NCBI GenBank assembly: GCA_036399015.1
Contig: DASWNW010000086.1
Span: 722-64,721 of the forward strand
Length of the DNA: 64,000 nt
Direction of reading: 5' to 3'
Source: Thermoanaerobaculia bacterium
Lineage (GTDB): Bacteria; Acidobacteriota; Thermoanaerobaculia; Gp7-AA8
Part shown: positions 4,271 to 59,121 of the stretch, in pieces
Numbering within the stretch: position 1 is the first letter of the stretch
How the letters are laid out: each line of letters begins with the position of its first letter
Made by a program: the position numbers and the translations under genes
The notes under the pieces: model-generated
The model's input: the letters and a program-made list of their open reading frames with translations, nothing else
Database searches by the model: none
Told to the model about the DNA's origin: nothing

Positions 4271-4460
4271 CGCAGGGCGGTGTCACGGCCTACCAGTTTG
4301 CCGCGCTTCATCTGCTGGATCAGGGCGATCCGGCCTCTGCGGTCGTGGCAGCGGAGTTGGGCGTCGCGCGTGAAAAGAAGACGTTCCCGAATTCCGTCGG
4401 ATCGAAGATCGTAGGCATTGCAGACAAGGCCTGGAAGGCGCTCGAGGGACGGCGATGACG

Positions 4461-4522
4461 CCGGTTCCTCGGGTTCCTCGGCGTAACCGCACCCGAGGAA
4501 CTCCGAGGAACCGAGGAACCCC
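4461..4522. repeat. tandem-unit hairpin repeat, unit GTTCCTCGG / CCGAGGAAC (family shared with 22179-22218 and 27474-27563)
   Basis: ggttcctcgggttcctcgg..loop..ccgaggaactccgaggaaccgaggaacc between convergent genes. Confidence 0.7.
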
Positions 4523-4528
4523 GCGCCC

Positions 4529-5986
4529 TCACTCCTTGTCGATCGTGATGTTCCCGTTCGCGTTCGTCAGGTCGAGCTGGCAACCGCCGCGGCCGATGGT
4601 GCCGACGAGCGTGTTCTCATTCACGCCGTTCGTCGTCACCGGGAGGGCGCTCTTGATCGACCCGAACGAGGTGCGGGCGTTGACGCTGTAGCTCGAGCCT
4701 GCCGGCACCGACACCTTGATCGGGCTGAAGTTCGTGCGCAGCGCGACGGGGCGGCAGCCGGTGCCGCGGAGGCCGGCGACGGAGATGGCGCCGTTCGAGT
4801 TCTCGACCCGCACCGGGCCGCCGGCGCCGTCGATCTTCACCCAGCCGAAGCTCGAGCGGACCGTCGCGGCATTGCCCATCTCGTTCAGCGTCACGTTGCC
4901 GTTCTGGTTGTCGACCGTCGCCGCGCCGCGCACCCGGTCCGCCTGAACGTCGGCGAAGCGGGTGGTGGCGGTGAACGCGCCGGTGATGTCGCTGACCTTG
5001 ATGCTGCCGTTGCTGTTCTTCACGGTCGCCGCGCCACTGACCTTGCTCAGCGTCACGGCGCCGAAGGCCGTCTCGACGACCGCGGCGCCGGAGATGTTCG
5101 TCGCCTCGACCCCCGAGTTGCTGCCGTCGACGGTGAGGGTGCCGCCGACCGTGTTCACGACCACGGAGCCGAACGAGTTCCGCACCGTCGCCGCGCCGCC
5201 GACGTTCGCCAGTTCGACGCGGGCGTTGCTGGTGGTGACGTCGGCGCCGCCGCGCACCGTCGACGCCTTGACGTTCCCGAACGTGCTGACGGCCTTGAGG
5301 CCTCCGCCGATGTCGACCACGTCGATCGAGCCGTTCGCGTTCGTGATCGTGGCGCCGCGTCCGACGTTCGACACCTCCACCGACCCGAAGCGATTCGTGA
5401 CGGTGAGGGCGCCGTCGACTTTCTCGACGTCGATCGAGCCGTTCTGGTTGTGGACCGTGAGGTCGCCGCGGTTCGTCTTGACGTCGATCGAGCCGAAGGA
5501 GTTCGAGAGGGTGTGCGCGCCCCGTCCGTCGAAGAAGGAGATCGAGCCCTGCTTGTTCTCGATCGTGCTGGACGCGCCGAGGCCGCGCGCGTCGATGTTG
5601 CCGAAGCTGTTCCGCGCCGTCACCGGCGCGTTCGCCGGCACCGTCACCGTCATGTCGACGGAGTACGACACGTGCCCGAACATCTTCTTCACCTCGGGGA
5701 TCGTCGTCGTGATGCTCACGCCCGACGGGCTCTCGGTCGTGGTGATGCGGATGGCCTTGCCGATCTCGTCGTCGGACGAGCGGATGACCGCACGCACCTG
5801 CACCTGCGAGCTGTCGTGCGTGCGGAGGGTGAGGTCGCCCGCCGCGTGCTGAATCGTGACGCGTCCGCCGCTGAACGTGGCGTTCTTGCCGTAGCGGGTT
5901 TCGAAGCGCGACTCGTCGTCCTCTGCCAGGAGAGGCAGGGCGAGGAGCAGCGAGAGTGCGAGGAGCAAATTACGGAGTCGAAGCAT
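4529..5986 (-). CDS. secreted DUF4097-type repeat protein (putative adhesin), downstream of anti-sigma factor
   Basis: 485 aa; signal peptide; ~20 tandem N-x-F/NG-S-I-x-V beta-strand repeats typical of DUF4097; operon position after ECF sigma/anti-sigma. Confidence 0.6.
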   Translation of the reverse strand: MLRLRNLLLALSLLLALPLLAEDDESRFETRYGKNATFSGGRVTIQHAAGDLTLRTHDSSQVQVRAVIRSSDDEIGKAIRITTTESPSGVSITTTIPEVKKMFGHVSYSVDMTVTVPANAPVTARNSFGNIDARGLGASSTIENKQGSISFFDGRGAHTLSNSFGSIDVKTNRGDLTVHNQNGSIDVEKVDGALTVTNRFGSVEVSNVGRGATITNANGSIDVVDIGGGLKAVSTFGNVKASTVRGGADVTTSNARVELANVGGAATVRNSFGSVVVNTVGGTLTVDGSNSGVEATNISGAAVVETAFGAVTLSKVSGAATVKNSNGSIKVSDITGAFTATTRFADVQADRVRGAATVDNQNGNVTLNEMGNAATVRSSFGWVKIDGAGGPVRVENSNGAISVAGLRGTGCRPVALRTNFSPIKVSVPAGSSYSVNARTSFGSIKSALPVTTNGVNENTLVGTIGRGGCQLDLTNANGNITIDKE

Positions 5987-7218: not shown

Positions 7219-7350
7219 GGTTGCTGGTTGCTGGTTGCTCGTGTCGGTTGTCAGTTGCTCGTTGTCAGTTGTCGGTTGTCGGTTGTCCGTGGAGTGTCGC
7301 CCGGGCGGGAACCCACGTCGACAACTGACAACCGACAACCGACAACACAA
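7219..7350. repeat. composite tandem-unit hairpin: 3x GTTGCTG units then long GTTGTCG/CGACAAC palindrome (stem ~27 bp)
   Basis: ggttgctggttgctggttgctc..gttgtcagttgtcggttgtcggttgtcc-loop-gacaactgacaaccgacaaccgacaac between fpg 3' end and ECF sigma start. Confidence 0.75.
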
Positions 7351-16858: not shown

Positions 16859-16882
16859 GGCCGCCCTCCGGGCGGCCTTTTT
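16859..16882 (+). terminator. rho-independent terminator of rpsA
   Basis: GGCCGCCC-TCC-GGGCGGCC followed by TTTTTG, 5 nt after stop. Confidence 0.8.
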
Positions 16883-16953
16883 GTTGCTAGTTGCTGGTTG
16901 CTGGTGCCTTCGGCCGCCACATCACAAGCAACCAGCAACCAGTAACCAGCAAC
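16883..16953. repeat. GTTGCTG-unit tandem hairpin repeat
   Basis: gttgctagttgctggttgctggtg-loop-caaccagcaaccagtaaccagcaac. Confidence 0.75.
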
Positions 16954-16958
16954 TGAAC

Positions 16959-17801
16959 ATGCGCATCTTCCTCACCGGTGCCACCGGTTACATCGGCTCC
17001 TCCGTCGCCGCCGCTCTCCGTCGGGCGGGTCACGACGTCGGCGCGCTCGTGCGCCCCGACGCCGACTCCCACGCGCTGCGCGAGCAGGGGGTCGTGCTCC
17101 TCTCGGGCGATCTCGAGTCGCTGCCCTCGCTGCGCGAGCAGCTCGACGGCGCCTACGACGCGTACATCCACACCGCGGCATCGAAGACCGACAAGGTGGC
17201 GGCCGACCGCGCGGCGGTGGACACGTTCACGGCGCTCGGCGGCTACTTCCTCTACACCTCCGGCGTCTGGGTCCTCGGCAACAACAAGGCTGCCGACGAG
17301 GCCTCCGACGTCAATCCGCTCGAGCTGGTGAAGTGGCGTCCCGCGCACGAGGAGCTCGTGATCGGCGCCGGCGGCGGCGTCCTCCGTCCCGGCTGCGTCT
17401 ACGGCGGCAGGCAGTCGCTGCTCGCCGACTGGTTCGCCGCCGCCGAGCAGGGGAGGCCGCTGAAGCTCGTCGGCGACGGGACGAACCGCTGGGCGCTCGT
17501 CGACGTCCACGAGCTCGCCGACCTCTACGTCCGCGCCGTCGAGCAGCGCGCGACGGGCGTGCTGCACGGAATCGACGACACCGACGCCACGCTCGGGGAG
17601 TGCGCCGGCGCCGTCGCGCCAGACGCCTCGATCGAGTACACGCCGCTCGACGCCGCGCGCGAGCATCTCGGCCCGTTCGCCGACGCGCTGGCGATCGACC
17701 AGCGGGTCTCCAGCACCGAGACGCGGAGCAAGACCGGCTGGTCGCCGCGGCGGACGTTCCTCGACTCGGTCGAAGAGCAGTGGCGCGAGTGGCGGTCGTG
17801 A
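16959..17801 (+). CDS. NAD(P)-dependent epimerase/dehydratase (NmrA-like) family protein
   Basis: Start at Met158 of ORF 16488..17801; Rossmann motif MRIFLTGATGYIGSSV. Confidence 0.7.
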   Translation: MRIFLTGATGYIGSSVAAALRRAGHDVGALVRPDADSHALREQGVVLLSGDLESLPSLREQLDGAYDAYIHTAASKTDKVAADRAAVDTFTALGGYFLYTSGVWVLGNNKAADEASDVNPLELVKWRPAHEELVIGAGGGVLRPGCVYGGRQSLLADWFAAAEQGRPLKLVGDGTNRWALVDVHELADLYVRAVEQRATGVLHGIDDTDATLGECAGAVAPDASIEYTPLDAAREHLGPFADALAIDQRVSSTETRSKTGWSPRRTFLDSVEEQWREWRS

Positions 17802-17807
17802 CCGCGG

Positions 17808-18599
17808 TCAGCGGGCGAAGCCGATCAGCAGCTCGTTGACCCGCTCCGCGGCGTCGTGCTGCGCGAAGTGGCCGATCTCCGGCAGCCGCTCGATGCGCAC
17901 GTTCGTCACCCACTGCCCGATGTCCTCCAGCGCCTGGGGGAGGAACACCGGCTCGCGCTCGCCCCAGACGATCATGGTCGGGACGTCGATGCGGCTGTGG
18001 CGCATGCGCATCTCCGTGCGCGACTTCCGGATGGCGCGGTAGTAGTGGATCATCGGCGTAAGGCCGCCGCGCCGCCACTGGCGGATGTAGGTCTCGATCT
18101 CCTCGTCGGTGAAGCGCGCCGCCCGGCGCAGGAAGTGGCGGCCGAAGAGGCGCATCACCAGCTCCGGGAGCAGCGGGAGCTGAAAGAAGACCTGGTAGAG
18201 GAGGTTCACCTTCTGCCGCGTGCTCCGTCTCACCTCGCGCGCGATCGCGGCGGGATGGGGGACGTTGATGATGACGAGCTTGCGCAGGAGATCGGGGCGC
18301 TGCATCGCGATGCCCCAGGCGGCCGCCGCGCCCCAGTCGTGTCCGACGAGCACGCACGGCGTGCTGCCGAGCGACTCGATCAGCTCGATCACGTCGCCGG
18401 CGACGTCCGTCATGCGGTAGGAGCCGATGCCGGCGGGCTTGGGGGACTCGCCGTAGCCGCGCAGGTCGGGGGCGACGGCGCGGAAGCCGGCTCGCGCGAG
18501 GGCGGGCAGTTGCCGCTTCCACGAGATCCGGTATTCCGGGAAGCCATGAAGGAGGACGACGAGAGGCCCGTCGCCCTCCGAGTCATAGTGCAGCTTCAA
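17808..18599 (-). CDS. alpha/beta hydrolase (epoxide hydrolase-like)
   Basis: 263 aa; HGFPE..., nucleophile elbow GHDWG, C-terminal His. Confidence 0.75.
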   Translation of the reverse strand: MKLHYDSEGDGPLVVLLHGFPEYRISWKRQLPALARAGFRAVAPDLRGYGESPKPAGIGSYRMTDVAGDVIELIESLGSTPCVLVGHDWGAAAAWGIAMQRPDLLRKLVIINVPHPAAIAREVRRSTRQKVNLLYQVFFQLPLLPELVMRLFGRHFLRRAARFTDEEIETYIRQWRRGGLTPMIHYYRAIRKSRTEMRMRHSRIDVPTMIVWGEREPVFLPQALEDIGQWVTNVRIERLPEIGHFAQHDAAERVNELLIGFAR

Positions 18600-19552
18600 G
18601 AGCGGTTGGGATCGTAGCCGGTGTTGCCGCCGCCGGTGCCGCCCGTGCCGCCGGTGCCACCGGTACCGCTGGTGCCGCCGGTTCCACGGTAGTCGGCGCC
18701 GCCCGTACCACCCGTACCGCGATAGTCCGTGCCGCCCGTGCCGGCCGTGCCGCCGGTGCCGCGATAGTCGGTGCCGCGGTCGTAGCCCGGTCCGCGGTCA
18801 AAGTCCGCGCCGGCGACCGTGGTCGTCGTCTCATCCTTCCCGCGATTCACCGCCGCGTAGATCAGGCCTGCGCCGAGGGCGAGGGCCGCTACGCCGGCAG
18901 CAACCTTGGCCGGGTTCTCACGCGTGTACGACGTCACCTTGCTGCTCGAGCCCTTGAGGTAGTCGCGCGCCGTGTTGAGGTACTCGTCGACGTCGACGTT
19001 CTCGAACTGCGAGCGGAGGCTGCCGAGCAGGCCTTCGATGCCGCCGGCCTTGCTGAGCGACTGTCCGCAGTGCGTGCAGAAGTGGTCTTCCCCGGTGTCG
19101 GACGAGGAGCCGGTCGAGCCGGTGCCCGCCGTGCTGCCGCCGCCGTCGCCGACACCACCGCTGCCGCTGCCGCCACCGAGGCCGCTGCCAGCGAGGCCGC
19201 TGCTGCCGGTGCTGCCACCGAGGCCACTGCCACCGAGACCGCTGCTGCCGGTGCTGCCTCCGAGACCGCTGCCGCCGCTGCTGCCGCTGCTGCCGGAGCC
19301 GGCGCCACCGGAGCCATACGAGCCGCTGCCGCTGCCGCTGCCCGGGTTGAGCGAGCCGCCGGAGCTGCTGCCGCCGCCCGTTCCCGAGCTGCTGCCGCCG
19401 CTGCCGGTGGTCATGCCGCCGCCCGACGACATGCCGGTGCCGGTGCCGCCGGAGCCGTAGCCGGCCCCGGTGGACGTGCCGCCCGAGCCGCTGTTCCCTG
19501 TGGTTCCGCCGCTGATGCCGGAGATGGGGTCGTTAGGATCGTTCTGAGCCAT
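18596..19552 (-). CDS. Gly/Ser/Thr-rich low-complexity protein with DUF883 (ElaB/YqjD)-like C-terminal membrane anchor and DYRGTGGT repeats
   Basis: Start set at Met16 (19552) preceded by GGAGG RBS; ..YTRENPAKVAAGVAALALGAGLIYAAVNRG resembles ElaB/YqjD tail anchor. Confidence 0.5.
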   Translation of the reverse strand: MAQNDPNDPISGISGGTTGNSGSGGTSTGAGYGSGGTGTGMSSGGGMTTGSGGSSSGTGGGSSSGGSLNPGSGSGSGSYGSGGAGSGSSGSSGGSGLGGSTGSSGLGGSGLGGSTGSSGLAGSGLGGGSGSGGVGDGGGSTAGTGSTGSSSDTGEDHFCTHCGQSLSKAGGIEGLLGSLRSQFENVDVDEYLNTARDYLKGSSSKVTSYTRENPAKVAAGVAALALGAGLIYAAVNRGKDETTTTVAGADFDRGPGYDRGTDYRGTGGTAGTGGTDYRGTGGTGGADYRGTGGTSGTGGTGGTGGTGGGNTGYDPNRS

Positions 19553-19568
19553 TCGTGATACCTCCTCG

Positions 19569-20003
19569 TTACTCGCGCGATTCGATGGTCGACTCACCCG
19601 GCTCGTACGTCCGCCGGTGCGTGCCGATCCGCGGATCGCCCGACTTGTTGGTCAGACGGTCTTCGTCGTTCCAGCGCTCGTCGGAAACGCCGTACGCGAA
19701 CTCCTGATCGTTCTGATGGTCTGCTCCGTCGCTGCGGAATCCTGCCTTGCCGCCGGTGAAGGGCGGGGTGTAGGTGCGGCCGATGAGGTCGAGCGGGATG
19801 TCGGTCTCACGCCGCGTGGTGCGTGCCGGTGTGGGTGTCGTGTTGCTGCTGCCGCGGTCCGCCGCTTCCGGCGCCGCCGCCATCATGGTTTCGTTCGTGG
19901 TGGTGGACTCTTCGCGGCCGCGTCCGAAGACCCTGCGGACCGCGCTTGCAACCCGCTGCAACGTGCCGAGCTGCATCGTGGAATTCTCAGTTTTCTGTGC
20001 CAT
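19569..20003 (-). CDS. highly hydrophilic, disordered small protein (hydrophilin/LEA-like; putative stress protein)
   Basis: Start set at Met44 (20003) preceded by AGGGAGG RBS; 144 aa rich in T/E/R/D/G with no hydrophobic core; upstream residues of track ORF derive from repeat. Confidence 0.45.
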   Translation of the reverse strand: MAQKTENSTMQLGTLQRVASAVRRVFGRGREESTTTNETMMAAAPEAADRGSSNTTPTPARTTRRETDIPLDLIGRTYTPPFTGGKAGFRSDGADHQNDQEFAYGVSDERWNDEDRLTNKSGDPRIGTHRRTYEPGESTIESRE

Positions 20004-20066
20004 CCAACCTCCCTTTCGTGGTGCGTTGTCGCACTCCCATCCATTGCAAGGAAGGTGCTGGAAACG

Positions 20067-20175
20067 GCAGTCGCAGAGTCGCAGAGTCGCAAAGTCGCAG
20101 AGGAGGGAGCGCAGCCTTTGAGCCTCTGACACTCTGAGACTCCGCGACTTTGAGACTCTGCGACTCTGCGACTAC
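20067..20175. repeat. tandem-unit hairpin repeat, unit GCAGAGTC / GACTCTGC, ~45-bp stem, in divergent promoter region
   Basis: cagtcgcagagtcgcagagtcgcaaagtcgcagagg-loop-cctctgacactctgagactccgcgactttgagactctgcgactctgcgact. Confidence 0.75.
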
Positions 20176-20184
20176 GATCCGGCC

Positions 20185-22128
20185 ATGAAACGGCTCATTG
20201 TCGTGCTCGCCCTGGCCGCCGCCGCCGCTCCCCTCATCGCCCAGACCCGCACCCAGAAGCCACCGCTCCACGGCGCGCACTGGATGGCCATCACGGGCAA
20301 GCCGCTCGCCGCGACCGCCGGCGCGATGATGTTCCAGAAGGGCGGCAACGCCGTCGACTCCGCCGCGGCGATGCTCGCCGCCACCTGCACCCTCTGGGAC
20401 ACCCTCGGCTGGGGCGGCGAGACGCAGGCGCTCATCTTCGACCCCCGCACGAAAAAGGTCATCGGCATCAACGCACTCGGCGTCGCCCCCTCCGGCGCCA
20501 CCGCCGACTACTACAAGTCGAAGGGGATGCAGTACCCGCCCGAGTACGGCCCGCTCTCCGCCGTCACTCCCGGCACGCCCGGCGGCCTGATGGTGATGCT
20601 GGCCGAGTACGGGACGCTGTCGCTGAAGGAGGTCCTCGCGCCGTCGATCCAGCTCGCCGACGGCTTCCCGATCGAGGCGCAGCTCGCGAACGGCATCGAG
20701 CGGCAGAAGTCGTGGCTCAAGCAGTGGCCCTATTCACGCGCCGTGATGCTGCCGCATGGTGGGGTGGCGCCCGCTTCGGGCGCCTCGTCGTCTGCGGCGG
20801 CCGGAGCGGCCGCCGCGCCACAGAGCATCACTCCGTCGCACGACGTCGTGACCACCGCTGCCGCCACCACGGGGCGCGAGGCGCCGCATCCCGGCGAGAT
20901 GTTCCGCCAGCCCGATCTCGCGGCGACGCTGCGGAAGCTCGTCGAGGCGGAGCAGCAGGCGCTCCAGCGCGGCAGGTCGCGCAAGGAGGCGATCTACGCC
21001 GCGTACGACCGCTTCTACAAGGGAGACATCGCGCAGGAGATCGCGCGCGGGACGCAGGAGCAGGGAGGGCTGATCACCGCCGCCGACCTCGCGAACTGGC
21101 GCGTGCGCACCGAGGAGCCGGTGAAGACCAGCTACAAAGGGATCGACGTCTACAAGCTGACGGTCTGGACGCAGGGGCCGTCGATGCTGCAGGCGCTGAA
21201 CATCCTCGAGAACTTCGACGTCAAGTCGATGGGCTACAACAGCGCGCGCTACATCCACACGCTCTACCAGGCGCTCAGCCTCGCCTACGCCGACCGCGAC
21301 TTCTACTACGGCGATCCCTACTTCCCGCCGGCGGAGCCGGTGGCCGGGCTGCTGTCGAAGGAGTACGCGCGCGAGCGGGCGAAGCTGGTGAACCCGGAGC
21401 GGAACGATCCGAACATCGGACCGGGCGATCCCTATCCGTTCCAGCGCGAGACGAACCCGTTCCTGGAGACGCTGCGCAACTGGAGCAAGACCGCCACCCA
21501 GCCGCGCACGTCGGCGGCGTTGCAGTCGTTCGACGAGTCGTTCCGCCTCGGCACGACGTCGATCGAGGCGGCGGACGAGCAGGGGTGGGTGGTGTCGATC
21601 ACGCCGAGCGGCGGCTGGGTGCCGGCGGTGATCGCCGGCCGCACCGGCGTCGGTCTCTCGCAGCGGGCGCAGAGCTTCGACACCGACCCGGCGCAGAACC
21701 CGTACAACGTGATCGAGCCGGGCAAGCGCCCGCACGTGACGCTCACGCCGACGCTCGCCTTGAAGGACGGCGCGCCCTACCTTGCCTTCGCGGTGCAGGG
21801 GGGCGACACGCAGGACCAGAACCTCCTGCAGTTCTTCCTCAATGTCGTGGAGTTCGGGATGACCCCGCAGGAGGCGGCCGAGGCGGCGAACTTCAATACG
21901 TTCCAGGTGCGCAAATGGCTCGGCGACCGCCAGTCGATCCCCGGCCGCATCCTCCTGCACGAGGCGACGCCGCCGTGGGTGCGCAACGACCTGCGCAGGA
22001 TGGGCTACGACATGACGTTCGAGGAGCGGACCTCGGGCCCGATCAACGCGATTCTCTTCGACCGCAAGCACGGCACGATGTGGGGCGGCAGCTCGAACCA
22101 TGGGGAGGACTACGGGATCGCCTGGTAA
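20185..22128 (+). CDS. ggt: gamma-glutamyltransferase (Ntn-hydrolase)
   Basis: 647 aa; signal peptide; catalytic Thr region GTTSIEAADEQG; GGT family length and motifs. Confidence 0.85.
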   Translation: MKRLIVVLALAAAAAPLIAQTRTQKPPLHGAHWMAITGKPLAATAGAMMFQKGGNAVDSAAAMLAATCTLWDTLGWGGETQALIFDPRTKKVIGINALGVAPSGATADYYKSKGMQYPPEYGPLSAVTPGTPGGLMVMLAEYGTLSLKEVLAPSIQLADGFPIEAQLANGIERQKSWLKQWPYSRAVMLPHGGVAPASGASSSAAAGAAAAPQSITPSHDVVTTAAATTGREAPHPGEMFRQPDLAATLRKLVEAEQQALQRGRSRKEAIYAAYDRFYKGDIAQEIARGTQEQGGLITAADLANWRVRTEEPVKTSYKGIDVYKLTVWTQGPSMLQALNILENFDVKSMGYNSARYIHTLYQALSLAYADRDFYYGDPYFPPAEPVAGLLSKEYARERAKLVNPERNDPNIGPGDPYPFQRETNPFLETLRNWSKTATQPRTSAALQSFDESFRLGTTSIEAADEQGWVVSITPSGGWVPAVIAGRTGVGLSQRAQSFDTDPAQNPYNVIEPGKRPHVTLTPTLALKDGAPYLAFAVQGGDTQDQNLLQFFLNVVEFGMTPQEAAEAANFNTFQVRKWLGDRQSIPGRILLHEATPPWVRNDLRRMGYDMTFEERTSGPINAILFDRKHGTMWGGSSNHGEDYGIAW

Positions 22129-22176: not shown

Positions 22177-22178
22177 AA

Positions 22179-22218
22179 CCCGAGGAACTCCGAGGAACTC
22201 CGAGGAACCCGAGGAACC
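22179..22218. repeat. four direct CCGAGGAAC units (one arm only)
   Basis: cccgaggaactccgaggaactccgaggaacccgaggaacccc. Confidence 0.65.
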
Positions 22219-22219
22219 C

Positions 22220-27465: not shown

Positions 27466-27473
27466 GCGAGGCG

Positions 27474-27563
27474 GTTCCTCGGAGTTCCTCGGCAGTTCCT
27501 CGGGTTCCTCAGCCGACCTCCCCCGAGGAACCCCGAGGAACCCCGAGGAACCCCGAGGAACCC
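27474..27563. repeat. GTTCCTCGG x4 / CCGAGGAAC x4 hairpin repeat after tonB
   Basis: ggttcctcggagttcctcggcagttcctcgggttcctc-loop-ccccgaggaa x4. Confidence 0.75.
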
Positions 27564-29322: not shown

Positions 29323-29414
29323 GAATGAAGAATTTCGAATGAAGAATGAAGAGGTTGTTCACGGCCGCCGGCTGGACTTTATTCTTCATTCTTCATTCGA
29401 ACCTCTTCATTCGA
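29323..29414. repeat. tandem-unit hairpin repeat, unit GAATGAAGA / TCTTCATTC
   Basis: gaatgaagaatttcgaatgaagaatgaagag-loop-ttcttcattcttcattcgaacctcttcattcg. Confidence 0.75.
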
Positions 29415-29424
29415 TTGGAGCCAC

Positions 29425-32160
29425 ATGCGACGAGCCGTCACCCTCGCGATCCTCCTCCTCTCCCTCTCCCTCCACGCCCTCCCTCCAAACGTCGAAAAGA
29501 TCGACTCCTTCCGCGGCATCGACCAGTACCGCCTCAAGTCCAACGACATGACCATCCTGCTGGTGCCGAACCACGCCAGCCCGGTCGTCACGTTCATGGT
29601 GGTCTACCACGTCGGCTCGCGGAACGAGGCGCCGGGGAACACCGGCTCGGCGCACCTGCTCGAGCACATGATCTTCAACAAGTCGACCGAGAACTTCGGC
29701 CGCGCCAAGGGCCACAAGACGTTTCAGGAAGTGCTCTATGAGGCGGGCGCCGACTATTCGTCGACGAACATGACCACCTGGAACGACCGGATGAACGGCT
29801 ACTCCACGCTGCCGTCCGACAAGCTGGAGCTGGCCATGAAGATCGAGGCCGACCGGCTCGGCCGCGGCCTCATCCTCGACAGCGAGCGGCAGTCGGAGAT
29901 GTCGGTCGTCCGCAACGAGTACGAGATCGGCGAGAACGACCCGTCGAACGCGCTCTGGAAGAACGTCATCGCCACGGCCATCCAGGCGCACCCCTATCAC
30001 TGGGACACGATCGGCTACCGCTCCGACATCGAGGGCGTGACGACCGAGAAGCTGCGCGAGCACTACAAGACGTTCTTCTGGCCCGACAACGCGGAGGCCA
30101 TCCTGGTCGGCGACTTCGACACGGAGCAGGCGCTGGCGATGTTCGACCGCGAGTTCGGCGCCTTCAAGAAGAGCGACAAGCCGATCCCGCAGGTGATCAC
30201 CGTCGAGCCGCCGCAGGAAGGGGAGCGCCGCGTCGTCGTGCAGCGCCCCGGCACGGTCGGCATCGTGCAGATCGGCTACATGCGTCCCGGCGCGCTCGAT
30301 CCCGACTTCATCGTCCTCGACGTGCTCAGCTCCATCCTCGGCGACGGCGTGAACTCGCGCCTCTACCGTGCGCTCGTCGAGAAGCAGCTCGCCACCAGCG
30401 TCAGCTCGCACAACTTCACGCTCCGCGATCCCTACCCGCTGATGATCGAGGCGAACCTCGCCGCCGGAAAGGCCCACACCGACGTGGAGCAGGGCATCAA
30501 GGCCGCGGTCGCCGAGGTCGTCGCCAAAGGGGTGACGGACGAAGAGGTGAAACGCGCGCAGCAGCAGATCGAGGTCGCCGTCATCCGCAGCCGCGACGGC
30601 ACCTTCAACTACGCCTCCAACCTCGGCGAGTCGGTGGCGTCGACGAACTGGAAGTGGTTCCTGACCTACGTCGACAACGTCAAGGCCGTGACCGCCGCGG
30701 ATGTGAAGCGCGTCGCGTCGGCCTACCTGACGCCGGAGCGGGCGACCGTCGGCTGGTTCGTCCCGGGGACCGCCGTGAAGCCCGTCCCCTCTGGAGCGAC
30801 GGCCTCTCAGGCCGTCGCCGCGAAGACGGAGAGCCGGGCTGAGAGCCCGGCCGTGCAGAGAGAGACCAAACCCGCCGCCGGCTCCTTCGCCCAGCGCACC
30901 ACCCGCCGCGTCCTCCCGAACGGCATCATCGTCGACGTCGTCGAGAACCACGCCGTCCCCACCGTCGCCATCCGCGCCCTCGCGTTCGCGGGCGACATCG
31001 CCGCGCCTGCCGGGAAGCCGGCCGTCCCCGCGCTCACCGCGAAGATGCTCGCCCGCGGTACGAAGTCGCGCACGAAGGAGCAGATCGGCAAGCTGCTCGA
31101 CGACGTCGGCGCGACCCGCTCCTACGCGACTAACCTCACCGAGGCGCTGGTGAGCGCGAACGGGATGTCGCGCGACCTGCCGCTGCTGCTGGAAGTCCTC
31201 GGCGACGAATTGAAGAACCCCGCCTTCACGGCCGAGGAGCTGGAGAAGGCGAAGAACGAGCTCGAGAACGACTACCTGCGCGCCGACGATCAGACCAGCG
31301 CCCGCGCGATGCAGCGCCTCAGCCAGCTCGTCTACCGTGAGAACCATCCGTACTACGCCTTCGGCCGGGCGAAGCTCGTCGAGAGCGCGAAAGCGGCGAC
31401 CGCGGACGACCTCCGCGGCTTCCATCGCGCCCGCTACGCCGGCGCGGGGCTGATCGTGGCCATCGTCGGCGACGTCGACACCGCGAAGACGCTGGCGCTG
31501 GTCGAGAAGCAGCTCGGCGGCCTGCCGAAAGGGGAGCGGATCTCGTTCGCGCAGCTCCCACGCACCACTCCCGCCGCGAAGGGCGTGCGCGAGGCGGTGA
31601 CGATGCCCGGCAAGGCGAACATGAACATCGTCATGGGCACCGCCTCCGGTCTCCGCCGCAACGATCCCGACTACGAGGCCGCGCTCATCGCCAACGCCGC
31701 GCTCGGGCAGACGGCGCTCTCGTCACGCATCGGCCGCCGCGTGCGCGACACCGAGGGCTTGTCGTACAACCTCGCGTCGCGCTTCTGGAACAGCGACGTG
31801 CTCGACGGCGTCTGGTGGGTGAACGTCAACGTCGCGCCGCAGAACCTCGAGAAGGCGATGAAGTCGACCTACGAGGAGATCGTGAAGTTCGGCCGCGAGG
31901 GGGTCACCGACGAAGAGGTGGCGGCGCAGAAGAGCTTCTTCGCCGGCAACTACAAGGTCGGCCTCGGCTCGAACGCCGGCGTCGCCACGGCCCTCGTGAC
32001 GGCGGAGAAGTTCGGCTTCGGCCCCCGCTACCTCGACGAGTTTCCCGCGCGCATCAACGCCGTGACGAAGGACCAGGTGAACGCCGCCATGCGCAAGTAC
32101 CTCTTCCCCGACCGGCTGCACGTGATCGTGGCGGGAGATCTGGAGAAGGTGCCTGATTAG
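29425..32160 (+). CDS. secreted M16 (pitrilysin/insulinase) family zinc peptidase, double-module (911 aa), carrying in-frame palindromic-element insertion in the inter-module linker
   Basis: Signal peptide; inverted zinc motif HLLEHMIF (HxxEH); second M16-like half; linker residues ..PSGATASQAVAAKTESRAESPAVQRETKP.. are encoded by two copies of the palindromic element. Confidence 0.85.
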   Translation: MRRAVTLAILLLSLSLHALPPNVEKIDSFRGIDQYRLKSNDMTILLVPNHASPVVTFMVVYHVGSRNEAPGNTGSAHLLEHMIFNKSTENFGRAKGHKTFQEVLYEAGADYSSTNMTTWNDRMNGYSTLPSDKLELAMKIEADRLGRGLILDSERQSEMSVVRNEYEIGENDPSNALWKNVIATAIQAHPYHWDTIGYRSDIEGVTTEKLREHYKTFFWPDNAEAILVGDFDTEQALAMFDREFGAFKKSDKPIPQVITVEPPQEGERRVVVQRPGTVGIVQIGYMRPGALDPDFIVLDVLSSILGDGVNSRLYRALVEKQLATSVSSHNFTLRDPYPLMIEANLAAGKAHTDVEQGIKAAVAEVVAKGVTDEEVKRAQQQIEVAVIRSRDGTFNYASNLGESVASTNWKWFLTYVDNVKAVTAADVKRVASAYLTPERATVGWFVPGTAVKPVPSGATASQAVAAKTESRAESPAVQRETKPAAGSFAQRTTRRVLPNGIIVDVVENHAVPTVAIRALAFAGDIAAPAGKPAVPALTAKMLARGTKSRTKEQIGKLLDDVGATRSYATNLTEALVSANGMSRDLPLLLEVLGDELKNPAFTAEELEKAKNELENDYLRADDQTSARAMQRLSQLVYRENHPYYAFGRAKLVESAKAATADDLRGFHRARYAGAGLIVAIVGDVDTAKTLALVEKQLGGLPKGERISFAQLPRTTPAAKGVREAVTMPGKANMNIVMGTASGLRRNDPDYEAALIANAALGQTALSSRIGRRVRDTEGLSYNLASRFWNSDVLDGVWWVNVNVAPQNLEKAMKSTYEEIVKFGREGVTDEEVAAQKSFFAGNYKVGLGSNAGVATALVTAEKFGFGPRYLDEFPARINAVTKDQVNAAMRKYLFPDRLHVIVAGDLEKVPD
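30788..30868. repeat. two inverted copies of small palindromic element inside M16 peptidase CDS (in frame)
   Basis: ctctggagcgacggcctctcaggccgtcgcc ... gagccgggctgagagcccggccgtgcagagagag. Confidence 0.7.
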
Positions 32161-32240
32161 TTACTGGTTGCTGGTTGCTGGTTCCTTGTGAGTCGTTGAG
32201 CGCGGGCAAACCAGCAACCAGCAACTAGCAACCAGCAACG
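32161..32240. repeat. GTTGCTG-unit tandem hairpin repeat between convergent genes; right arm overlaps last codons of methyltransferase
   Basis: ttactggttgctggttgctggttcc-loop-aaaccagcaaccagcaactagcaaccagcaac. Confidence 0.75.
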
Positions 32241-32734
32241 CGCCTCATCACCAGTTCTCCGATCTCCCCCTCCCGCGAATGCAGCAACTCCCATCCCTCG
32301 AAGAACGACCCCAGCTCTCCCGGGCTGGCTGCGAACCGCCCCTTCATCCGGGCGGCGGTGACGAGCAGTCCGCCCGGGCGGAGCACCCGCTTCGCTTCCG
32401 CGAAGAGCGGGCGGTGCAGGTAATAGAGGATGAGTACGAGGTCGAACGACTCGTCCTCGAAGGGGAGCGGCGCGCCGGTCTCGAGGTCGAGCACGCGCGC
32501 GTCGACCGCCGGTTCGTGCTCCCGCAGCAGGCGGATCGCCTCCTCGGCGCCGTCGATCGCCACCACCTCCCACCCTCCGCGCGCGAGCCAGATGGCGTTC
32601 CGGCCGGCGCCGCAGGCGAGGTCGAGTGCGCGTCCGGGGGCGACGCCGCGCAGCGCATCGACGAGGAGTTCCGCCGGGCGGTCGTCGATGTCGTCGCGCG
32701 TGCGGTAGCGCTGGTTCCACTCGTCGAGACTCAC
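32225..32734 (-). CDS. class I SAM-dependent methyltransferase, TehB-like (tellurite/selenite methyltransferase family)
   Basis: 169 aa; motif I VLDLACGAGRNAIWLARGG; small TehB-like size; C-terminal VAGC-stop encoded by the GTTGCTG repeat. Confidence 0.7.
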   Translation of the reverse strand: MSLDEWNQRYRTRDDIDDRPAELLVDALRGVAPGRALDLACGAGRNAIWLARGGWEVVAIDGAEEAIRLLREHEPAVDARVLDLETGAPLPFEDESFDLVLILYYLHRPLFAEAKRVLRPGGLLVTAARMKGRFAASPGELGSFFEGWELLHSREGEIGELVMRRVAGC

Positions 32735-34523: not shown

Positions 34524-34540
34524 TACGCGCCTACGGCGCG

Positions 34541-34621
34541 GTTGCTGGTTGCTGGTTGCTCGTGAACTCCCAGCCACACGGCGCCATAGCAACCAGCAAC
34601 CAGTAACCAGTAACCAGCAAC
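34541..34621. repeat. GTTGCTG-unit tandem hairpin repeat inside efflux operon (between adaptor and ATPase genes)
   Basis: gttgctggttgctggttgctcgtg-loop-caaccagcaaccagtaaccagtaaccagcaac. Confidence 0.75.
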
Positions 34622-36627: not shown

Positions 36628-36632
36628 GAGCT

Positions 36633-36722
36633 GTTGCTGGTTGCTGGTGGCTGGTTCCTTGTGAGGTGTTCCTCCACGCACCCACTGCGTCACGAGCAAC
36701 AAGCAACGAGCAACCAGCAACC
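36633..36722. repeat. GTTGCTG-unit tandem hairpin repeat between the two permease genes
   Basis: gttgctggttgctggtggctggttcc-loop-gagcaacaagcaacgagcaaccagcaacc. Confidence 0.75.
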
Positions 36723-36742
36723 GCGAGCGAAGCGAGCGCAAT

Positions 36743-53848: not shown

Positions 53849-53925
53849 TGCCGGCGCCCGGCAAATCGTAAAGTCACACGGCTCGCCTCGCGCCTCGCGA
53901 GGCGGGCCAACTGCCCCCACCTCAC

Positions 53926-54186
53926 GATGGATATGGGGTCATGTCCATCGCCACGGCCGCGACGATGTGAGCGCGTCCGCCCGTACTCGCGAGGGACATG
54001 GGGTGATGTCCCTCGCCGCTGCCGCGACGACGTGAGTGCGTCCGTCCGTGCTCGCGAGGGACATGGGGTGATATCCATCGCGGCTGTCGCGACGATCTGC
54101 GTGACGCCGCCGCGGCGCAAATCGAGGTCGAGTGACCTCGAGCGCGACGTCCGTGGGACTGACGATGGACATCCCCCCATGTCCCT
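53926..54186. repeat. array of four 24-bp palindromes (GAGGGACAT-N6-ATGTCCCTC type) within ~64-bp tandem units upstream of serine-hydrolase gene
   Basis: P1 53926, P2 53990, P3 54056, P4 54163; inter-palindrome segments also mutually similar (gccgcgacgatgtgagcgcgtccg..ctcgcgag). Confidence 0.7.
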
Positions 54187-54278
54187 CGCGGCCGCGGCGA
54201 CGATGTAAAAGAACGTCACGGTCGCTCGCGCATCGCAGCCGCCCCGTCCCGCCAACGACGCGTGCGACAATCGCGTCC

Positions 54279-58981: not shown

Positions 58982-59070
58982 GTTGTCGGTTGTCGGTTCT
59001 CAGTTGTCCGGGGCTCCTCGTCACCCCAACACCGCAGACAACCGACAACCGACAACCGACAACCGACAAC
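58982..59070. repeat. GTTGTCG / CGACAAC tandem-unit hairpin repeat in divergent promoter region; followed by direct repeat cgcaggccgcgcc x2
   Basis: gttgtcggttgtcggttctcagttgtcc-loop-gacaaccgacaaccgacaaccgacaaccgacaacc. Confidence 0.75.
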
Positions 59071-59121
59071 CGCGGCCGCAGGCCGCGCCCGCAGGCCGCG
59101 CCGCCTGCTACCATCTTCCCG

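Follow-up and report, generated by a model that had tools for sequence, protein, structure and literature searches.

A tandem-unit hairpin upstream of ggt in a Thermoanaerobaculia genome probably belongs to a dispersed foldback-type repeat class with gene-carrying relatives

The 64-kb window analysed here, the whole of one stretch of a soil-metagenome contig from a Thermoanaerobaculia (Acidobacteriota) metagenome-assembled genome of 68% G+C, carries a long hairpin at 20069-20173, directly upstream of the gamma-glutamyltransferase gene ggt. Our results indicate that this hairpin is probably one copy, built from AGTC[G/T]CAG units, of a dispersed foldback-type class with gene-carrying relatives, and that the ggt copy was probably copied to its site, has drifted and has been co-opted. 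Elements of the class consist of a short spacer flanked by two arrays of a 7-10-nt unit in opposite orientation, and a second hairpin in the window, at 29323-29412, represents a second family of the same plan (GAATGAA/GAACGCA/GAAGGCA). Compared loci are labelled L001, L002, L003 and so on; L001 and L002 are other assemblies of the window genome and are 99.99% identical to the window.

The left arm of the ggt hairpin (20069-20102, plus strand) consists of four 8-nt units, AGTCGCAG AGTCGCAG AGTCGCAA AGTCGCAG, followed by AG, and the right arm (20140-20173, plus strand) reads CTCCGCGACT TTGAGACT CTGCGACT CTGCGACT. Between them lies a spacer or loop of 37 nt (20103-20139, plus strand) whose 3' part, 20119-20139, is made of two degenerate units of the right-arm type, and Tandem Repeats Finder (TRF) reports the right side as one array of CTGMGACT-type units at 20119-20173. 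The best pair of arms is 34 nt long and 94% complementary (32/34). Folded as single-stranded DNA the element reaches -44.9 kcal/mol with z = -8.9, and 0 of 200 shuffles were equally stable. The second hairpin lies on the plus strand between the stop codon of a GNAT acetyltransferase gene (29320) and the ATG of an M16 peptidase gene (29425). Its 30-nt arms (29323-29352 and 29383-29412) are 93% complementary with a period of 7 (GAATGAA / CTTCATT), and its fold reaches -28.5 kcal/mol with z = -8.3. Arm complementarity and fold stability thus bear out both hairpins as real, as an earlier note on this DNA had proposed. The stem of about 45 bp which that note gave for the ggt hairpin was slightly overestimated, the stem measuring ~34 bp when clean and ~41 bp in the minimum-energy fold with flanks, and the 9-mer it read in the second hairpin is a heptamer. 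Its statement that neither array occurs elsewhere in the window stands: no second copy of the ggt-hairpin array and no recurrence of the 29323 array were found within the window. Each unit of the AGTCKCAG family, those at 20069-20173 included, also holds GAGTC/GACTC, a GANTC site of the CcrM/HinfI type, which may be coincidence.

With minimum values of 18 nt for arm length and 80% for complementarity, we found 11 hairpins in the window, eight with periodic arms, against a mean of 1.15 hairpins per window and no periodic one in 40 order-2 Markov simulations. The window hairpins (8-11) are all intergenic, in the non-coding ~8% of the sequence, at a density of about one per 6-8 kb; extrapolated, this density would give hundreds of hairpins per genome. 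The unit GGTTGCT forms a family with five loci in the window, GGTTGTC one with two and GGTTCCTCG(G) one with three to four, while AGTCGCAG and GAATGAA occupy one locus each. The proposal that five unit families share one architecture is therefore confirmed, and the simulations mark that architecture as non-random. A search of the whole window at Rfam gathering thresholds returned no family and no RNA gene.

The same note regarded the units as locus-specific, a claim that fails once other genomes are considered. The pattern AGTCKCAGAGTCKCAGAGTCKCA, which comprises three AGTC[G/T]CAG units, matched at least 120 metagenomic stretches; some long contigs carry several of the loci each, and among the matches listed soil contigs of 63-68% G+C predominated. 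The GAATGAA/GAACGCA/GAAGGCA family likewise recurs in relatives, 3' of ggt in L009, L028, L031 and L023, in the M4-TonB spacer of L206 and at the acetyltransferase-M16 site of L028 and L031. The apparent locus-specificity arose because a 64-kb window samples too little. In a set of 64 distinct two-armed AGTC[G/T]CAG elements the modal number of units per arm is four (33/64 and 38/64 elements for the two arms), the outer ends are always AGTC...GACT and the inner edges are likewise constant, reading AGAGG...CCTCT; in a subset the loops, of 38 nt, are homologous to one another and occur in either orientation. The flanks of 59 elements have G before in 39/59 and C after in 39/59. Detection of the inverted architecture across relatives gave 30 periodic hairpins in 533 kb (37 related Thermoanaerobaculia loci), nearly all intergenic and built from many different units, versus four in 638 kb (36 outgroup loci). 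Because units recur and the counts are clade-restricted, the tandem-unit hairpins represent a lineage-wide class of multi-copy repeat families.

Longer elements with arms like those of the short hairpins (L110, L207 and L224) enclose a gene, which is no known transposase. In L110, AGTC[G/T]CAG arms ~430 nt apart enclose a 123-aa open reading frame (ORF) that matches PF05635 (23S-rRNA-intervening-sequence, Avd-like; E = 6e-24) and TIGR02436 four helix bundle protein (E = 1e-25). Among 1344 called genes scanned, no gene type other than the four-helix-bundle gene of L110 was enclosed by tandem-unit arms; the remaining high scorers were genes between two complete hairpins or beside non-periodic palindromes. 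The sole other homologue in the 2.16 Mb then examined, in L040, is flanked by ~12 and ~17 inverted 8-nt units, and five further homologues from Thermoanaerobaculia-type contigs are enclosed by inverted arrays in 5/5 cases. Arms are of AGTC[G/T]CAA units, 4+4, in L207 and of AGGCTCA units in L208/L209, and tandem-unit arms also enclose the PF05635 gene in L210-213 and L225. In L224 the arms are (AGTCGCAG)4 ... (CTGCGACT)4, so that these arms, which enclose a four-helix-bundle gene, are identical to those of the ggt hairpin, with its four units per arm, in both unit and unit number. The right arm of the Thermoanaerobaculia-type gene-carrying loci starts within the stop codon, and an extended -10 box is present at the inner edge of the left arm.

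The association extends well beyond Acidobacteriota. Xanthomonas loci of the XCC0516 family (L214 and L216) carry GGGAATC four times on each side of the gene, PF05635 genes on four cyanobacterial plasmids are flanked by inverted units of GGGTGTA, AAGGGAA and GGAGATAA type, and a Gemmatirosa locus has GGGCAGGA units; at a fifth cyanobacterial locus the downstream array alone remains, beside an ISL3 transposase. In 13/13 distinct loci examined, from four phyla (Acidobacteriota, Gemmatimonadota, that of Xanthomonas, and cyanobacteria), each with its own unit, the PF05635 gene thus lies between inverted tandem-unit arrays, one locus keeping a single array. Because the PF05635 loci carry like arms, the short hairpins look like gene-less members of one class. 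Protein identity is 76% within the AGGCTCA group versus 67-75% across groups, a weak and anecdotal covariation with unit type. We found no paper linking PF05635 genes to tandem-unit inverted arrays, in a literature coverage that was incomplete, and the gene-family link is apparently unreported. The closest known kind is formed by the inverted heptamer arrays published for Xanthomonas, Geobacter and cyanobacteria, so far unexplained. The architecture that they share with the present elements is tied here to the orphan family PF05635 in 13/13 loci, which makes the function of S23p proteins and the over-representation of heptamers in some bacteria directly testable. Some PF05635 genes sit with their arms inside operons, between accB and accC in L214/L216 and between cas10 and cmr3 in L222, a Picosynechococcus plasmid. 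Many contigs with four-helix-bundle genes are shorter than 2 kb, and tandem-unit repeats appear to break short-read assemblies; a 220-kb Joint Genome Institute (JGI) contig of the window genome, L002, stops in the spacer of the ggt hairpin, its position 1 being window position 20111.

In the mechanism we favour, the short hairpins would be gene-less members or derivatives of PF05635-carrying elements, and copies would reach intergenic sites by copying rather than by local origin. Arrays would later drift by replication slippage, with complementarity kept by selection or by arm-to-arm correction, and old copies could be recruited, as at the ggt promoter. Several observations weigh against this account. 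A tblastn search of the window found no PF05635 gene, and the ggt copy has a 37-nt spacer without an ORF. No PF05635 gene was found with GGTTGCT, GGTTCCTCG or GAATGAA arms, and within Thermoanaerobaculia the link between PF05635 and arms is shown for the 8-nt family alone. The loops of short elements do not significantly resemble the interior sequence of L110 or L207; only the arms are shared, and an origin by internal deletion is therefore not demonstrated. We found no transposase, no fixed target motif and, in the flanks of 59 elements, no target-site duplication, and palindromy of the flanks, as expected for insertion into hairpin loops, is only weakly enriched (6 observed vs 1.6 expected of 59). 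Elements are present at some orthologous sites and missing from others, a pattern that either loss or repeated gain could have produced. Some arrays start with sequence like the end of the upstream gene (L023: GGTGAAGGTGAAGGCAGAAGG), which leaves room for local seeding, and the ggt promoter discussed below is a consensus prediction.

Comparison of orthologous sites suggests that both the ggt copy and the 29323 copy are old, with counterparts at equivalent sites in other species. A two-armed hairpin of the AGTC type lies directly 5' of the ggt -10 box in L206, whose ggt is 90% identical to that of the window, and in L008, L011, L018, L021, L051, L013 and L014; right-arm remnants occupy the position in L003 and L007. 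The hairpin is absent from L004, L005, L006, L009 and L012, the first three of which are the closest relatives. Between species, units at this site differ in one or two positions, and a matching change is often present on the opposite arm, as in the pairs AGTCGCAG/CTGCGACT, AGTCTCAC/GTGAGACT, AGGCTCAC/GTGAGCCT and AGTCTTCG/CGAAGACT. The suggestion that units are related by single substitutions therefore holds between species at one site. In six species the acetyltransferase-M16 spacer holds an element from one of three or four unit families (L028 has the same units as the window, L031 has GAAGGCA, L014/L026 have GAGTGCT and L034 has GCTGTTG), and in L005 it is empty. The spacer 3' of an S1-domain gene is also occupied in L012, L013 and L015, with GTTGCT units in the window, L013 and L015 vs GTTGTC units in L206, each 3' of a conserved canonical terminator. 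Arms seem to expand and contract by slippage: expansion is one-sided in L013 (seven left vs three right units at ggt), L088 and L089, and the same gene from two samples has seven vs five right-arm units (L208 vs L209).

The element overlaps a predicted promoter of ggt (PF01019; 20185-22128, plus strand), which agrees with its earlier placement in a divergent promoter region. A predicted -35 box, TTGAGA (20150-20155, plus strand), arises from the right arm's third unit, a T variant; a 17-nt spacer of two further arm units follows, and the predicted -10 box, TACGAT (20173-20178, plus strand), takes its first base from the last base of the right arm and is separated from the ATG by 6 nt. This is the only promoter-like site in 19700-20500, with 0 in shuffles, and one of four of such kind in the whole window. 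A -10-like hexamer lies 6-8 nt 5' of the ATG in 18/19 ggt orthologues, and TTGAGA, TTGTGA or TTGCGA is found at the equivalent -35 position in L206, L003, L007 and L011. The ggt mRNA is predicted to be leaderless because 6 nt lie between the -10 box and the ATG and because, in the clade, TAnnnT peaks 6-8 nt before the ATG. Since the -35 hexamer holds its position across species, and is kept in L003 although the remainder of the element there has decayed, we infer that an old copy was co-opted, its right arm giving the -35 box and 17-nt spacer of a leaderless promoter. Hairpins of this class may thus become working promoter parts, as predicted for ggt. Across the window and loci L003-L041, a TAnnnT that ends 6-8 nt before the ATG precedes ~13% of the genes whose upstream spacer is free, which suggests that the Thermoanaerobaculia lineage has a sizeable class of leaderless mRNAs alongside Shine-Dalgarno-led genes.

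An unlikely alternative is that the structure itself is selected, the hairpins serving as terminators, as RNA-stabilising or RNase III sites or as cruciform or protein-binding insulators, and the families having in common a binding protein. The high stability and strictly intergenic location of the hairpins would be expected in this case, as would their persistence at the same site across species with matched arm changes, and TTTT follows the hairpin at 27470-27563. RNase III is known to cut a tandem-heptamer stem in Coxiella (PMC4990558), and each AGTC[G/T]CAG unit contains GANTC. The distribution of the class argues otherwise. Periodic hairpins occupy tandem, convergent and divergent spacers in proportions of 45:14:20, close to the background of 273:93:139, which weakens a terminator reading for the class, whereas non-periodic hairpins in the same loci (34:33:10) are enriched in convergent spacers as for terminators. 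Several hairpins stand directly behind a canonical terminator (window 16866-16882; the M4-TonB spacer of L206), and the ggt copy is absent from L004, L005 and L006, the closest relatives. For the ggt copy a terminator role, which the earlier note had entertained, is not supported: it lies between two divergent gene starts and upstream of the predicted leaderless start, its loop is 37 nt long with no T-run 3' of the element, and no terminator-like site was found in 19700-20500.

It is also improbable that the elements were generated in place, each from a local seed that was tandemly duplicated and then copied in inverted orientation or by template switching, with shared units the product of convergence. 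One-sided arm expansion and variation between strains fit such a process, as does the coexistence of single-substitution unit variants in one array (7219-7346; L031). Arrays that start in or beside a stop codon and resemble the gene end (L023, L011), and the difference in units at the same site 3' of the S1 gene (GTTGCT in the window, GTTGTC in L206), also point in this direction. Duplication and inversion of a local seed nevertheless fails to account for identical elements at many loci, since 120 or more unrelated loci have in common the 8-nt unit, the modal 4+4 plan, the termini and, in part, homologous loops, or for arms that enclose a conserved gene at several unrelated loci. Nor does it account for hairpins nested in hairpins: in the M4-TonB spacer of L206 (L206:12465-12740) a GAATGAA/GAACGCA hairpin lies inside a GGTTCCTCGGG...CCCCGAGG hairpin, and palindromic repeats are found within hairpin loops in L013 (3' of the S1 gene) and L026 (acetyltransferase-M16 spacer).

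The claim that the hairpins are unlike repetitive extragenic palindromic (REP) or MITE (miniature inverted-repeat transposable element) families is wrong, since units are dispersed and GGTTGCT alone recurs five times in the window. High-copy intergenic imperfect palindromes of conserved sequence are a REP-like trait (AGTCKCAG at 120 loci or more, GGTTGCT at five window loci), and REPs are described as having one end marked by a conserved tetranucleotide, GTAG or CGTC (PMC3733652). That the elements are classical REPs or REPINs moved by a REP-associated tyrosine transposase (RAYT, a Y1 HUH transposase) encoded elsewhere in the genome is very improbable: both consist of intergenic palindromes that are dispersed, fall into several families in each genome, persist vertically and are free of target-site duplication as expected of single-strand HUH transposition, but the ends here are AGTC...GACT (G before, C after) with no GTAG/CGTC tag, the arms are tandem arrays of variable unit number, a periodicity foreign to REPs, and the gene inside family members encodes a four-helix-bundle protein and not a RAYT. 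Of the MITE traits, the inverted arms are present, target-site duplication is absent in the flanks of 59 elements, and longer elements with the same arms exist.

The type that fits is the inverted tandem-heptamer array known from Xanthomonas as GGGAATC, with units of 7-10 nt, a modal 4+4 plan, an intergenic location and many loci. X. campestris has 186 GGGAATC arrays, 70-75 inverted pairs and a modal four units (Rehm et al. 2015, PMC4692102); the arrays are ~90% intergenic and chromosome-wide, with lengths not conserved between species (PMC4692102). Tandem 7-nt units, the modal four and closely spaced inverted pairs able to form stem-loops are shared with the elements described here. Rehm et al. 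interpreted the arrays as G-quadruplexes and found no association with mobile elements (PMC4692102). The Xanthomonas unit is single and G-rich, whereas at least five families of 7-10 nt occur here, most of them unable to form quadruplexes, and no G3 tracts are present in AGTCGCAG, GAATGAA, GGTTGCT or GGTTGTC.

Intervening sequences of 23S rRNA are a second relative in form. That of Coxiella has an S23p ORF and strain-variable tandem heptamers (GACAGAT) at a stem cut by RNase III, and is regarded as selfish and proposed to be a former mobile element (PMC4990558). In Coxiella and Leptospira a long inverted-repeat stem with tandem heptamers surrounds a PF05635 ORF in the loop, as in the gene-carrying elements. 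They differ in lying inside an rRNA helix and being excised by RNase III, whereas the elements here are mostly ORF-less and lie between protein genes, the ggt copy included, which is not in an rRNA helix. In G. metallireducens a four-heptamer element is present in 49 copies, and a five-heptamer class is drawn as strand-switching hairpin pairs (PMC2700814); these were read as regulator binding sites or regulatory RNAs, and some are inside genes (PMC2700814). Four-helix-bundle genes of cyanobacteria flanked by inverted heptamer arrays (GGGTGTA, AAGGGAA) bring the STRR (short tandemly repeated repetitive) sequences of that phylum into the comparison. STRR sequences are reportedly lineage-specific families of tandem heptamers in non-coding DNA, and one inside the RNase P RNA gene is said to lengthen a helix of that RNA. 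They are mainly described as direct tandem arrays, and no reported tie of STRR to a gene or to a hairpin plan was found in the literature. Eukaryotic Foldback transposons (Drosophila FB, Galileo) have long inverted ends of short tandem repeats in variable number. The likeness lies in inverted tandem-repeat ends that flank a centre, short or gene-carrying, and is one of form alone, as Foldback transposons are eukaryotic, kilobase-sized and moved by known transposase superfamilies.

PF05635 proteins are related to Avd, a nucleic-acid-binding pentamer of diversity-generating retroelements (PMC10053308), and PDB entries 2GSC (XCC0516) and 2RLD have five chains each. As a working guess, a five-subunit ring of the four-helix-bundle protein may bind the tandem units. 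We further raise, tentatively and as a rather doubtful proposal, that four-helix-bundle proteins and foldback arms form one widespread, unrecognised system in which a pentameric ring reads 4-5 units, each subunit taking one, and which spawns hundreds of gene-less hairpins per genome. If true, this would explain the excess of heptamers in Xanthomonas, Nostoc, Geobacter and these Acidobacteriota, would cover the rRNA intervening sequences and the STRR insert in RNase P RNA, and would give a function to orphan four-helix-bundle proteins.

The remaining arrays of the window, all given on the plus strand, vary in completeness. A weaker hairpin of GGTTCCTCG units (4454-4530) lies between convergent genes, and a mixed hairpin (7219-7346) has (GGTTGCT)3 then (GTTGTCN)7 in its left arm and (GACAACN)4 in its right. 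GGTTGCT hairpins occur directly 3' of the terminator of the S1-domain gene and 5' of the ATG of an epimerase gene at 16959 (16883-16953), between the M16 peptidase gene and a convergent minus-strand gene (32147-32245), and twice between co-directional genes (34540-34621 and 36630-36724). The canonical terminator directly 5' of the first of these (GCCGCCCTCCGGGCGGCC + TTTTT, 16866-16882) is kept in most relatives. A solo array, (CCGAGGAAC)x4 at 22177-22219, lies 3' of ggt without an opposing arm, in a spacer that holds full hairpins of other unit families in relatives. A GGTTCCTCGG hairpin (27470-27563) is found 3' of a TonB-C gene, and a GGTTGTC hairpin (58982-59072) in a divergent spacer.

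Synteny around ggt is conserved among relatives. Opposite ggt lies a divergent unit of two genes, neither of which matches Pfam, and its earlier description as a stress-protein operon is not upheld. The first gene (19569-20003, minus strand) encodes 144 aa; it is preceded by a Shine-Dalgarno sequence of its own, and its leader contains a conserved GTGCG-N4-CGCAC dyad. A minus-strand gene at 18596-19552 encodes a Gly/Ser/Thr-rich product of 318 aa that has no Pfam match, and contains long in-frame tandem repeats at 18629-19295 with periods of 9, 27 and 42.

Two further kinds of repeat were observed. A 430-nt spacer in the window holds, at 53921-54197, four copies of a small palindrome, CGAGGGACATGGGGTGATGTCCCTCG, with no Rfam match; three are direct at ~65-nt spacing and one is inverted, a repeat type different from the tandem-unit hairpins. 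A second palindrome family (GTCATCCTGAGCGAAGCGAAGGATC...), non-periodic and absent from the window, is common in relatives, with sites 3' of ggt in L005, L021, L040, L041 and L066 and 3' of TonB in L051 and L206. In L120 (7759-8088) palindromes of the GTCATCCTGAGCGAAGCGAAGGATC type flank a small gene that by eye resembles a GIY-YIG nuclease.

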